NCBI GenBank assembly: GCA_964016885.1
Contig: OZ024741.1
Location: 176,700,001-176,764,000, forward strand
Source of the DNA: Eledone cirrhosa
Lineage: Eukaryota
Direction of reading: 5' to 3'
DNA length: 64,000 bases
Part shown: piece after piece, positions 25,042-59,378 of the stretch
Layout: each line of letters begins with the position of its first letter
How positions within the stretch are numbered: position 1 is the first letter of the stretch
Notes under the pieces: model-generated
Databases searched by the model: none
What the model saw: the letters and a program-made list of their open reading frames with translations, nothing else
What the model was told of the DNA's origin: nothing
Program-made: the position numbers and the translations under genes

Positions 25042-25096
25042 TTCCGTCGTTGAAAACGCATATAAAGCTGAAACCGGTACTCGATTAAATGCGGAA
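25042..25096 (+). ncRNA. hammerhead-like motif, U3:A8 variant (degenerate stems)
   Basis: ttccgtcg TTGAAAA cgc-atataaa-gct GAAA ccgg TA ctcga...cggaa. Confidence 0.5.
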
Positions 25097-42958: not shown

Positions 42959-43014
42959 ACTGCTATATATATTTCGATGATAGCCATTGAATGGCTATGA
43001 CCTCATCAGGCAGT
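42959..43014 (-). ncRNA. type I hammerhead ribozyme
   Basis: minus strand: actgc CTGATGA ggtcatagccat-tca-atggctatcatc GAAA tatata TA gcagt. Confidence 0.85.
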
Positions 43015-47457: not shown

Positions 47458-47534
<77 letters not shown>

Positions 47535-47535
<1 letters not shown>

Positions 47536-48720
47536 AAAATGAGATGAAATCGAAAATGCAACTGAAGTCTTATTTAAAAAAAAAAAATATATATTTATTT
47601 GGTTCCTTTACCGGTTTCGCAGTTCTTCTGCTTTTCAAAAGGTGAGTTGAGATGGAGGGTCTGTGGTTTTTCTCACATCTGGTTGGTCTCTAAATGTTAC
47701 TTGTTTTATATGGAAAAAGTGGCTCGAAAGCCAGGTTTTTCGAGAAGTAATTTGATTGGTTTGTCAATAATTATAATAAATTTCGCGCCAGTTCGCGTTA
47801 CAATAGTTCTTCAAATAAGAGAGGGGGGGGGGGGTTGTCACAGGTTGTTTTTTCATATATGAGTGTTTGAGTTTCTTTTTACTTGAAAAAAGGAGGCTCA
47901 CGAAGGCTTTTTTTGGGTTGGTTATAAATGAAATTTGGCTGTCATGTGAACAAGTTTTCATTACATTTTTGCGCCCTTATTTGGAAAACTATTCTGTAGT
48001 CTTTATAGTGAATGTTATGACAATGGAGAGATAGTGGTCAAGGGAAAAGGGATTGGGAGAAATGTTCTGGTTCAGTGAATATGGCCAGCTGTCAGAGTTC
48101 AGGTGTCAGAGTTCAGATTTTCTATTGAGACTGAAGATATGTGTTTATTTGTGTGCTTGTGTGTGTGTATATGTGTGTGTGTGTGTATATGTGTGTATTG
48201 GAAGATGATTCTATTTGTAGAGATGGAGGAGGGAGTTGTGTACGTGTGTATATGGGTGTTATGTGTGTGTGTGTGCGAGTATGTTAAGACGGAGAGAATA
48301 TATATTTTGTGTGTGTGTATATATATATGTGTGTAGGAAAGTGGTTCTATTAGTAGAAATGGGGAGGGAGTTGTAGGTGTGGGGGTTGTTATGTGTGTGT
48401 ATGGGTGTTATGTGTGTGGGAGTATGTTTAGCATGTTAAGATGAAGAGAATATATATATATATATTGTGTGTGTGTGTATGTGTGTGTGTAGGAAAGTGA
48501 TTCCTTTAGTAGGAATATTTTTGAATGAACATATTTTCCTGACTTTTTCGTGTTTGCTGTTGTATTGCCAGTGCAAACGTATGTTAAGGTTTATTTAGTT
48601 CGGGTTTTTATTTTATAAAGTAGAAGGTGTTATGTGTGTGTGTGTATGTCATATTGTGGTGTTGACATAATGTATATTAAACCTTATTTAATGTTGGTCT
48701 ATGTATATATATATAAAATT
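47535..48720 (-). mobile_element. PLE-like 3' UTR/pLTR ending in (TA)n
   Basis: HHR variant at 47605; blocks shared with 56127-56430 (aaaaagtggctc, atttgattggtt, tttcgcgcca); internal TG-rich tandem duplications. Confidence 0.55.
47605..47642 (-). ncRNA. minimal hammerhead, U3:A8 core variant
   Basis: minus strand: cctt TTGAAAA gcag-aagaa-ctgc GAAA ccgg TA aagg; stems I and II perfect, stem III palindromic. Confidence 0.75.
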
Positions 48721-48744
48721 ATAATTGGTGCTCTGAAATAGCTA

Positions 48745-49130
48745 TATATATATGAATGTATATATAGTGTATTTTGCAATACACCGTATGCTTAATTAAA
48801 AGCATTTCGAAGACCTTATGCTATTGTTTTAGAGTAGTGACAGACTCACTTACTTTAATTTCAGCAAACAGGAGGAGATAAAGCTGACAAGGCCTTGTTT
48901 CGCATTTATTGATGCTTATCAAAACCAACTACTCATCCCGTCTGCTGTTATCATGGATGTTTGGTTCTTATAGAATTCTAGTAAATAATCAGGAACTGAT
49001 TATACAATTTTGCTGAAATTAAAGTAAGTGAGTCTGTCACTACTCTAAAACAATAGCATAAGGTCTTCGAAATGCTTTTAATTAAGCATACAGTGTATTG
49101 CAAAATACAATATATATACATTCATATATA
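48745..49130. repeat. inverted repeat (~120-bp arms, ~140-nt spacer) between TA tracts
   Basis: 48745-48868 is reverse-complementary to 49009-49130. Confidence 0.9.
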
Positions 49131-49245
49131 TATATATATATATATACATATAGATACACACACACAAGCTCACACACGCACGCACATACATATATATGTG
49201 TGTGCGTGTGTATGTGTGTATATATATATATATAGATATATATTA

Positions 49246-52168: not shown

Positions 52169-53282
52169 CTGGAGAAACCAAGGTTTTTAAATAAAATCGA
52201 TCTTCCATCTCTACAATCTTTTCTATAGAGATGAGAAACATGTAGGTGCCTGCAAACAACGAATCAATCTATTATAATTAATACTCATTCACATAATATA
52301 GATCATCACGTTCATGTCTTCATGAGTTTGGAAGTAACATTTAATTCATCACAATGCATGGCAAGAATGTTTGCAAACAATGAATATAAACAAACAATGA
52401 AAGAAAGCAGAAAACAGATGCATGTATATAAATGGCAAATAGAGTGAAATAGAATTTTTAGAACTTTTAGGCTTGTGAAGTGCATAACTATAAAGTTTTA
52501 TTGTGTAAACGTTAAATAAATAATAGTATAAGAGTGCTATCATGTTTTAATTTTTTAAGAGAGAATCAAATTTATAGACTAGCGGGAATGAAAGAAGGTA
52601 CTTTATAATGGAAATTTAATAATCTCTGCATTAATACATTCCCAAAAAGAAGGTTTATTATTATTGTTTAATCGTGTTTCTCACTCGGGCGTAAAGGAAA
52701 GTCTGAAGCAAAGAACAAAATCACCATGATATCGACAGGATTCGTATTTCCGCAGCACTGGAGGAAAGTTACAAAACAAAAATGCTAAGGTGGTTTATTT
52801 ATGCATAAACGATCTGTTTAATTTATATCCGGTGTTACGATATCAGCATAGAGCATTACATTACTCAATGAATCCGGAGAGTGCTACTTTAAGCATTATT
52901 TGGGTGAATGGGAGTTGTATCAAGATAGGCTTATCTGAGCTTAAGTTCACTTGTGTCATTTTATAAATAATGATACCGGGTACTCAGAGGTACTGTATAG
53001 GTTTACGAGATTAGCGGGTTGGCCTCAGAACCTACGTTAGTATACAGAAGCATATACTTATATCGAACATCTGGAAAATTATATCATGGAACTCCATTAA
53101 CCTCATTGAAAACTATTTGGTACACTGTTCTTTCACTGATATTTACAAAATCATTCCGTAGATACGATTTTTACCAACATGAAGTGAAAACTCTTTTATG
53201 TTACCATATATATATATATATATATATATATATCTATATATATATATAGTTAAAAGAATAGAGGTGTAACACACAAGTTATT

Positions 53283-53675
53283 ATATATTGGTAAACGGAA
53301 TAGAAAATGCTGACAAATTGTTCACAGTTGAAAAATGGTTTAATTAGGAATAAAAGAGTATTAGTAATGGTATGGGTTAGTATTCAGTTGTGGTTTTAAG
53401 TTTTTAAGTTTTTACCGGTTGCGCATTTCTAAATGCTTTTCAAAAATAATTTTAAGATAGAGTGTCCGTGTTGTTTGCTCAGATCAGAGCAAACAACACG
53501 GACACTCTATCTCAAAATTATTTTTGAAAAGCATTTAGAAATGCGCAACCGGTAAAAACTTAAAAACTTAAAACCACAACTGAATACTAACCCATACCAT
53601 TACTAATACTCTTTTATTCCTAATTAAACCATTTTTCAACTGTGAACAATTTGTCAGCATTTTCTATTCCGTTTA

Positions 53676-53684
<9 letters not shown>
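53283..53684. mobile_element. near-perfect spacer-less ~400-bp palindrome (fold-back pLTR) in (TA)n
   Basis: centre at 53483/53484 (gctcaga|tcagagc); about two mismatches seen; arm homologous to 56127-56318. Confidence 0.92.
53521..53558 (+). ncRNA. hammerhead-like motif U3:A8 plus A13C (mirror copy at 53409-53446 on minus)
   Basis: ttt TTGAAAA gcatt-taga-aatgc GCAA ccgg TA aaa. Confidence 0.5.
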
Positions 53685-53728
<44 letters not shown>

Positions 53729-54480
53729 GCCTGTCTGTGTGTACATGTGAGGGTGTGCTTGTGTGTCCGTTATGGGATCGAATTATTAGAGATTACAGAC
53801 TAAATATAAATAAAAGTTTAACTGTTAACAAACTATAAAAACATGTGAAAACCAGCTACCAATATGATAAAATAAAAACAATATATCAGTAGTAATCCTT
53901 TAATTCTCATAATTCGTGAGATCAAACTTTTTATCCATTCAGTAACTCACGTAATTAATCGTTTGAAAATAATAAAGTGATAGCCAAATGAAAGGAAACC
54001 AGCCGAGATTTTCTTAAATCCTTATACTTTCTATGATATTTTAGATATAAATTTGAACTTTAATCCTTCAAAATAATGAACTGATTAGTAAGATATATCA
54101 AATCAATTGTATAACACTAAAAACGTGTTATACGCCCACACACACACGCACACAAGTATACACACACACACACACACACACACATACACACACACACAAA
54201 CACACATATAAATATATATACATATACATATATATATATACATATATATATATATATGGCAGTTTCGATGAGATAATAATACAATCATATACAGCAAACA
54301 ATATTTCAAATCTGAAATGTGATTTTATAGTCCACAGTATGATAGGTAAGGGAAAGTTCAGATTTTAATCCAATTAGTAGATTTCCAGTCACAGTGGTTT
54401 TACAACATCAGAGACCATATATAAAATGAATATAAATAACCAGGATTTAATTACAATAAATTATTTAAAGGTTTTACGAA

Positions 54481-56126: not shown

Positions 56127-56650
56127 AAGGTAAAAGGAAAATAAATTGCTGACAAATTTTTCCCACTGAAAAATAGTTTAATTAGGAATAAGTATAAATT
56201 AGTAATAAGTATTGGTTAGTATTCAGTTTTAGTTTTAAGTTTTTACCGGTTGCGAATTTCTAATGCTTTTCAAAATTAATTTTGAGATAGAGCGCTCGTG
56301 ATGTTTGCTCTAATCTGACCAGTTTTGGAAATTCTTCCTGTTTTATGTGAAAAAAGTGGCTCCAGAGGTATTAAGATTTGATTGGTTGTTTAATGTCACG
56401 TGAATAAGTACTATACATTTCGCGCCAAGGACTCAAGTATAGACTACTCCATTCAATGGAAAGCCATCACTAAGTCTAAGCCATACGCAAGGGGAAATCC
56501 GTCGTGCGGACTATGTATTGATGAACGAATAAATATTCTAAAGAAATAATGAAATAGCGATTTCCTAAACACGAAAAATAAATTCTTCACACGTTGTCCA
56601 CACGTCTCAAAACACCTCTTACGTAACTACAAAGCTCCGGATTGAATTAC
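56127..56650. mobile_element. inverted pLTR (56127-56430, minus) joined to a PLE endonuclease C-terminal remnant (plus)
   Basis: IQWKAITKSKPYARGNPSCGLCIDERINILK...FFTRCPH at ~56450-56605; HHR-like TTGAAAA...GCAA ccgg TA at 56240-56277 on minus. Confidence 0.7.
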
Positions 56651-59243: not shown

Positions 59244-59308
59244 AGGCACAAATCCGTTTTAGAAACGGATATCTGAAAATTTGGTAGGAACTAAATAGTA
59301 TTAGTATT

Positions 59309-59378
59309 GACGTACATGGGACACGAACCCACATCTTTCGTTTGCCGGGCCGATGTGTAACCATTACACCAACACGCC
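59309..59378 (-). pseudogene. tRNA-like sequence (pseudo-tRNA or SINE head)
   Basis: minus strand: ggcgtgt tggtgtaatggttacac...gtgggttcgtgtcccat gtacgtc; A and B boxes and T-arm present, acceptor and anticodon stems imperfect. Confidence 0.6.

Follow-up and report, generated by a model that had tools for sequence, protein, structure and literature searches.

The sequence analysed, referred to here as the window, is a 64-kb stretch of the 3.0-Gb Eledone cirrhosa genome. It contains a copy of a Penelope-like element (PLE) with a minimal hammerhead motif, a unit of a retrozyme-like repeat, and further sites with a related core (Table 1). Residue numbers follow the standard hammerhead scheme as in PMC3088659, and the family letters A to E were assigned in this analysis. 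Stem I of the focal motif has 4 bp (47642-47639 / 47608-47605) and adjoins the UUGAAAA core, in which position 47638 is U3 and position 47633 is A8. Stem II has 4 bp and a 5-nt loop. It is followed by GAAA at 47618-47615 (G12 at 47618) and by palindromic CCGG. U16.1 and A17 lie at 47610 and 47609, and cleavage is predicted after A17 (47609). The core residues U4 G5 A6 N7, A9, G12 A13 A14, A15.1-U16.1, and H17 occur in hammerhead order. With a strict descriptor, the window gave two motifs and each of 100 shuffles gave zero. A first-pass annotation of the window had proposed this minus-strand motif with stems I and II, and the match is exact (47642-47605). Its description of stem I as perfect holds for the focal copy and only in part for the family, in which the fourth pair is kept in 52/70 copies and replaced by an A-G mismatch in 13/70.

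Table 1. Hammerhead-related features and their host repeats in the window
Feature	Positions	Strand	Details
Family D motif, U3:A8, GAAA intact, one proximal stem I pair	25044..25085	+	Older, decayed copy
Minimal type I hammerhead motif, family A	47605..47642	-	Palindromic ACCGGU for dimer helix III
5'-truncated family A Penelope-like copy	47528..48702	-	95.8% and 96.4% identity to the two pLTRs of tandem locus L075
Unit of ~320-bp non-coding repeat, retrozyme-like, U3:A8 hammerhead	48715..49006	-	U3 48922, C17 48886
Inverted partner of family B motif	53410..53446	-	Palindrome 53205-53729
Family B hammerhead-like motif, U3:A8 and A13C (GCAA), 3-bp A-U stem I	53521..53557	+	97-99% identity to L167
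Family B second sub-lineage motif, U3:A8 and A13C, one stem II mismatch	56241..56276	-	88-93% identity to L170 in motif-holding blocks

An Rfam search of the window did not report the focal motif. Its only output was chance microsatellite matches and, at 48886-48921, a Hammerhead_HH9 match below threshold (17.7 bits, gathering 52), and the window's canonical minimal hammerheads were also absent from the matches listed (150 of 166). These are seven CUGANGA candidates in other repeat families, at 934(+), 21335(+), 25351(-), 43009(-), 43150(+), 43540(-), and 52009(-); those at 43009 and 43150 form an inverted pair. A tRNA-like match at 59308-59378 (-) scored 34.6 bits and is possibly the head of a SINE.

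Parent element

The window copy holds the last seven codons and the stop of an RT-endonuclease ORF (48700-48677), followed by a 3' region of ~1 kb and the hammerhead. The copy's 3' end (47528) lies 81 nt downstream of the focal motif. This end is the +80 site, with the cleavage site as reference, and (TA)n comes after it. In the parent element, an ORF1 of 409 aa overlaps an ORF2 of 775 aa (P0001). ORF2 encodes RVT_1 (PF00078, residues 295-442) and, at its C terminus, a GIY-YIG domain (PF01541, 682-772), with a CX4CXXC linker before the endonuclease that fits the CX2-5CXXC form of Neptune and Nematis. The motif lies ~1 kb after the RT/GIY-YIG stop and, in tandems, ~200 nt ahead of ORF1's first ATG. 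It is present in both pLTRs of L075, 4,660 nt apart. The parent ORF and this pair of pLTR motifs bear out the earlier placement of the motif as a PLE pLTR hammerhead ahead of an AT-rich tail.

Copies show the hallmarks of EN+ PLEs, namely tandem pLTRs (L075, L068), inverted 5'-truncated copies, an optional tail, and (TA)n targets. The ORF copies examined, chosen for similarity, are 96-100% identical to P0001. Judged from these sequences, the host is a young EN+ PLE, of Neptune/Nematis type by its linker; its relatives in the tree are all unnamed. Neptune and Nematis, as described by Craig et al. (2021, PMC8557442), share the C-terminal GIY-YIG domain, the linker, and the (TA)n targets, together with tandem and inverted insertions and an optional frameshifted ORF1. 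The ORF1/ORF2 overlap of ~90 nt (L068 5154-5244) contains the heptamer A-AAA-AAC where the ORF2 frame begins, which is likely a -1 frameshift site. Identity with Naiad elements, which could have made U3:A8 the explanation for the reported absence of hammerheads in Naiads, was rejected on the C-terminal position of the endonuclease. A PLE ORF at L397 (1711-2748) is 84% identical to P0001 and marks a further sub-family close to A.

Copy ends were mapped in 30 family A copies picked for an intact core. Their 3' ends fall at +80 in 9/30 and at +146-149 in 16/30. All 30 reach at least 7 nt upstream of U3 and 28/30 reach at least 32 nt, with 5' ends at 32-43 nt upstream in 16/30; inverted partners among these copies make them non-independent. 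We infer that most copies were made from RNA uncut at the motif site. At the predicted cleavage site 174 junctions were counted (~1.4% of 12,331 family A matches), and at a control position 106. TA microhomology confounds the cleavage-site count, and both sets include internal indels or duplications, in ~10/30 of the cleavage-site junctions inspected by eye. The 5' ends of short copies cluster 32-49 nt upstream of U3 (16/30 in family A, 10/30 in family B). Contig depth rises ~fivefold at this cluster, a possible transcription start in the pLTR.

Core state and copy number

A genome search for the U3:A8 core yielded 12,331 family A matches, and the reversed-pattern control yielded 0. Another base at position 3 was found in 112 matches, a count that covers position-3 variants only. 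None of the 100 listed is canonical, because all 100 keep A8. The U3:A8 core is a family-wide state and the family consensus is not CTGANGA; these counts rule out a copy-specific mutation of a canonical hammerhead. GAAA is conserved in 70/70 family A copies and UA in 69/70. Comparison of three contig sequencing runs with the element detected no core difference at the 10% level. A C3:A8 mismatch core occurs in six family A copies spaced ~9.6 kb apart (G000 C1:348863669-348911674), likely a tandem segmental duplication. The annotation's expectation that CUGANGA-based searches would miss the motif was confirmed, since a search with the canonical core and an identical CCGG stem III gave 205 matches against 245 in the reversed-pattern control. 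One small canonical-core family is visible among the 205.

The annotation also placed the same core elsewhere in the window. At 25042, UUGAAAA and GAAA-CCGG-UA are indeed present (core at 25050), with a single stem I pair next to the core. At 53521 and 56240 the claim is right for UUGAAAA and overlooked A13C, which is fixed in that sister family: at 53524(+), 53443(-), and 56273(-) GAAA is replaced by GCAA and stem I consists of three A-U pairs, and 56273 adds a stem II mismatch. These copies lack A13, and we file family B motifs as hammerhead-derived on their sequence, below confirmed membership. The family occupies 53410-53557 and 56241-56276 in the window as well as L167, L170, and L171.

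Family B has 11,351 genomic matches, of which 11,195 carry C13 and only 156 do not. Each of its three A-U stem I pairs is kept in 44-46 of 46 copies. It is young, with two ORFs 98.8% identical and two sub-lineages at 94.2%, and its 3' ends fall at +131 (17/30) and +167 (10/30). A further 4,440 matches (control 163) comprise families C, D, and E with decayed A and B copies. Among 100 matches listed for families D and E, 94 are U3:A8, 6 are mismatched, and 0 are C3:G8. No ORF was found for family D; the ORF of L185 groups with family B. Stem I is reduced to 2 bp in family C and 1 bp in family D while the core and CCGG persist. Motifs of the U3:A8 clade total at least 28,000, all in one genome and all missed by a canonical search. 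A Y3/R8 descriptor is therefore needed when hammerheads are counted or when a PLE family is said to lack one.

Lineage and covariation

By their reverse transcriptases (RTs), U3:A8 families A, B, C, and E group in a single clade (SH-aLRT 99) in which B is nested (99). The RTs compared with that of family A are 49-58% identical to it, and the nearest relatives outside the clade carry C3:G8. Together with the D and E counts, this clade upholds the proposal that a whole PLE lineage in this genome uses the core. N7 varies within the clade (A, U, C) and U3 and A8 are constant. The first stem I pair is U-A in A, B, and C, A-U in E, and G-C in D, and the fourth stem II pair is G-C in A versus U-A in B-E. 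A comparison of pairs per family found compensatory changes on both sides of stems I and II across A, B, and E.

Relatives were drawn from loci with related reverse transcriptases in metagenomes (75) and in a genome collection (48); the latter bear bacterial labels and probably represent host DNA. A first scan gave 55 motif hits, against 1 in reversed sequence. Downstream of the ORF, 25 distinct motifs from other organisms comprise 14 C3:G8, 10 U3:A8, 1 U3:G8, and 0 C:A, all with GAAA. A Watson-Crick 3:8 pair is kept in 24/25 (Fisher P value 3e-6, with non-independent rows, 8/10 of the U3:A8 motifs coming from one assembly). The tree requires five changes of 3:8 state, at least three of them forced by branches with support of at least 95. 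A single origin of U3:A8 across PLEs is not favoured by this count. Ten U3:A8 motifs in 25 and five changes on the tree make U3:A8 a recurrent PLE variant. GCAA motifs were absent from the outside-genome relatives scanned.

Both trees come from quick IQ-TREE searches, with branch support given by SH-aLRT only. Chains covering fewer than 240 of 431 RT columns and loci L277-L309 were left out. Elements without a called motif were scored "na" in the larger tree and dropped from the smaller one, and for three elements the core state was assigned manually (L068, by the motif upstream; L188; and L265). In one assembly (WLWD01 contigs, L239-L256), closely related PLE families in tandem arrays include C3:G8 and U3:A8 cores and a single U3:G8 core, which makes them well suited to a study of the switch. 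PLE RT-endonuclease genes also occur in bacteria-labelled assemblies, several of them from invertebrate symbionts (L262-L309; P0015, P0040, P0044, P0061, and P0119), and are likely host DNA contamination.

Neighbouring retrozyme-like repeat

The repeat unit adjoining the 5' junction of the window's family A copy resembles a retrozyme in being a non-coding tandem unit within 150-450 bp that carries a type I hammerhead. Its hammerhead has a 12-nt palindromic stem III and a long distal stem I with two-sided changes. The unit measures 322 bp in L390, same-strand spacings are 314-324 bp among the matches listed, and some copies form short tandems. There are 406 matches in the genome, with U3:A8 in 97 of 100 listed. 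The repeat spans 48715-49136 in the window and occurs at L389-L400. Animal non-LTR retrozymes, as presented in Cervera and de la Pena (2020, PMC7229834) and bioRxiv 10.64898/2026.07.22.740005, similarly have a ~320-bp non-coding unit, short tandems, and a type I hammerhead. The E. cirrhosa repeat differs from these retrozymes in having a U3:A8 core together with a 12-nt palindromic stem III. Because this tandem repeat uses U3:A8 with C17, U3:A8 as such likely works; the comparison suggests that the pair itself is compatible with cleavage.

Predicted folding

Stem I pairs of the 38-mer have probabilities of 0.70-0.74 and stem II pairs 0.82-0.83. Stems I and II are missing from the minimum-energy fold once 141 nt of flanks are included. 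A dimer joined through the palindrome folds at -20.3 kcal/mol versus -6.4 for the monomer, and the ACCGGU duplex that would form helix III is predicted at -8.3 kcal/mol. A single motif cannot make helix III by itself; as in other minimal hammerheads of PLEs, it takes a pair of motifs joined at ACCGGU. U3 pairs with A17 with a probability of 0.56 in the 38-mer, and the pair is also present in the minimum-energy dimer. A17 accompanies U3 in 163/168 copies of families A-E and is found in 0/10 outside U3:A8 motifs, all of which have U17 or C17 (8 from one assembly). The U3-A17 pair, which the first-pass annotation missed, is predicted to be a trap that damps cleavage. Its counterpart, a C3-G17 trap, has been proposed for minimal hammerheads (PMC3884650, PMC1636495).

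Function of the motif

We consider it probable that the focal motif is a minimal hammerhead in the terminal repeat of a young PLE, with a clade-fixed U3:A8 pair, that cuts RNA weakly, as a dimer or with the element's protein. Transcription would start in the upstream pLTR ~40 nt before the core, a position suggested by the 5' end cluster. Two motifs may then pair through the ACCGGU palindrome to make helix III. With U3:A8 in place of C3:G8 the 2'-OH of residue 8 could still act, and pairing of A17 with U3 would damp cleavage. The protein would begin reverse transcription at two downstream sites (+80 and ~+148 nt), and mostly uncut RNA would be copied into (TA)n targets, giving many copies of 150-220 nt and inverted pairs. 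Weak dimer- or protein-gated cleavage is favoured over a non-catalytic role because of the predicted U3-A17 trap, the partial losses caused by A13 changes, and parallels with other PLEs. Alterations of A13 are cited as inhibiting cleavage 10- to 100-fold rather than abolishing it (PMC4075628, citing earlier work), and A13C in family B would likely weaken the motif. Other PLE minimal hammerheads cut weakly (PMC4209133), and PLE hammerhead cleavage occurs with protein help (PMC11167929). Several points count against the favoured reading. Among the CUGA-turn double mutants covered by the type III hammerhead mutational scan in PMC9901934, only the G:C swap rescued activity. U3 tends to pair with A17, the flanked fold lacks stems I and II, family B has spread with A13C and a short A-U stem I, stem I is eroded in C and D, and junctions at the predicted cleavage site are few.

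A less probable alternative, on balance unlikely, is that catalysis has been lost and the motif is kept as a binding or dimerisation signal, serving in protein recognition, ACCGGU pairing, or as a pLTR promoter or RT start. The fixation of C13 in a family with young copies fits this reading, as do the near-constant A17 beside U3 in families A-E set against U17 or C17 elsewhere, the erosion of stem I in C and D around a retained core and CCGG, and the report that hammerhead mutants had no effect on insertion in vitro by an anole PLE (PMC11167929). Against it, N7 is the sole freely varying core position, both strands of stems I and II carry changes in A, B, and E, as the hammerhead fold demands, and A13 changes are reported as not null. 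Far less credible is that the ribozyme is fully active and that transposition depends on its cutting. Strict 3:8 covariation, the cut-circularise-copy model proposed in PMC4209133, and the use of U3:A8 with C17 by the retrozyme-like tandem repeat speak for it; only ~1% of copies begin at the cleavage site, however, copies picked for an intact core extend well upstream of U3, and the A13C family B thrives. A chance match or a copy-specific mutation of a canonical hammerhead has a negligible probability: the motif is short and A-rich and has no Rfam score, but the match counts against controls and shuffles, with no canonical core among the 100 of 112 listed, oppose it.

Alongside weak gated cleavage, a tentative and rather doubtful proposal from the sequences is that the clade's hammerhead was locked off, by U3-A17 pairing and erosion of stem I, after the switch to U3:A8. 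The young, still-spreading branch of more than 11,000 copies with C13 would then be dead yet conserved for a second, non-catalytic job or, if it cuts, would provide a natural U3:A8/C13 core of a kind that the literature searched did not contain.

Comparison with known systems

The U3:A8 motif is family-wide and lineage-wide in E. cirrhosa, but both the variant and its invisibility to CUGANGA searches are already in print. The first-pass annotation's view of U3:A8 as a rare natural variant is at odds with this literature and with the 10/25 outside motifs. Natural covariation from C3:G8 to U3:A8 was described in 2011, including ribozymes of this kind already active in vitro (Perreault et al. 2011, PMC3088659). 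The examples in PMC3088659 are several and scattered, and its relevant section describes a U13a insertion with no A13 substitution. U3-A8 hammerheads in Schistosoma PLEs, missed by the CUGANGA descriptor, were published in 2014 with ~1,300 hits (Cervera and de la Pena 2014, PMC4209133). Elsewhere A13 is altered in two cricket clones (PMC2837043). The sections of PMC6765202, PMC6155905, and PMC11014351 that were consulted hold nothing further on these core variants. A search of the main texts of papers found no fixed natural A13C hammerhead.

The closest published parallel described in PMC4209133 is the minimal hammerhead of S. mansoni Cercyon, which shares the pLTR position, a helix I of 4-5 bp, the G10.1-C11.1 pair, a short palindromic helix III, the U3-A8 core, mostly truncated copies, and inverted pairs. 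Unlike Cercyon, E. cirrhosa families A and B have a helix II of 4-5 bp without an extra base after A9. The E. cirrhosa system further differs in its number of matches (at least 28,000), its A17 cleavage site, an A13C sister family, and a Neptune/Nematis-like linker. Poseidon of Anolis carolinensis (Frangieh et al. 2024, PMC11167929) resembles it in using AT-rich targets and uncut RNA as the main template, and the two 3' ends of family A correspond to Poseidon's pair of internal RT start sites, which define its optional tail. In E. cirrhosa this tail measures 68 nt (A) and 36 nt (B), unlike that of Poseidon. Poseidon also has a canonical C3:G8 core overlapping the ORF start, and protein-assisted cleavage was demonstrated there. 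The A/B pair offers a natural comparison of A13 with C13, within one clade and with both families young, on whether PLEs need ribozyme cleavage, a modest lead.
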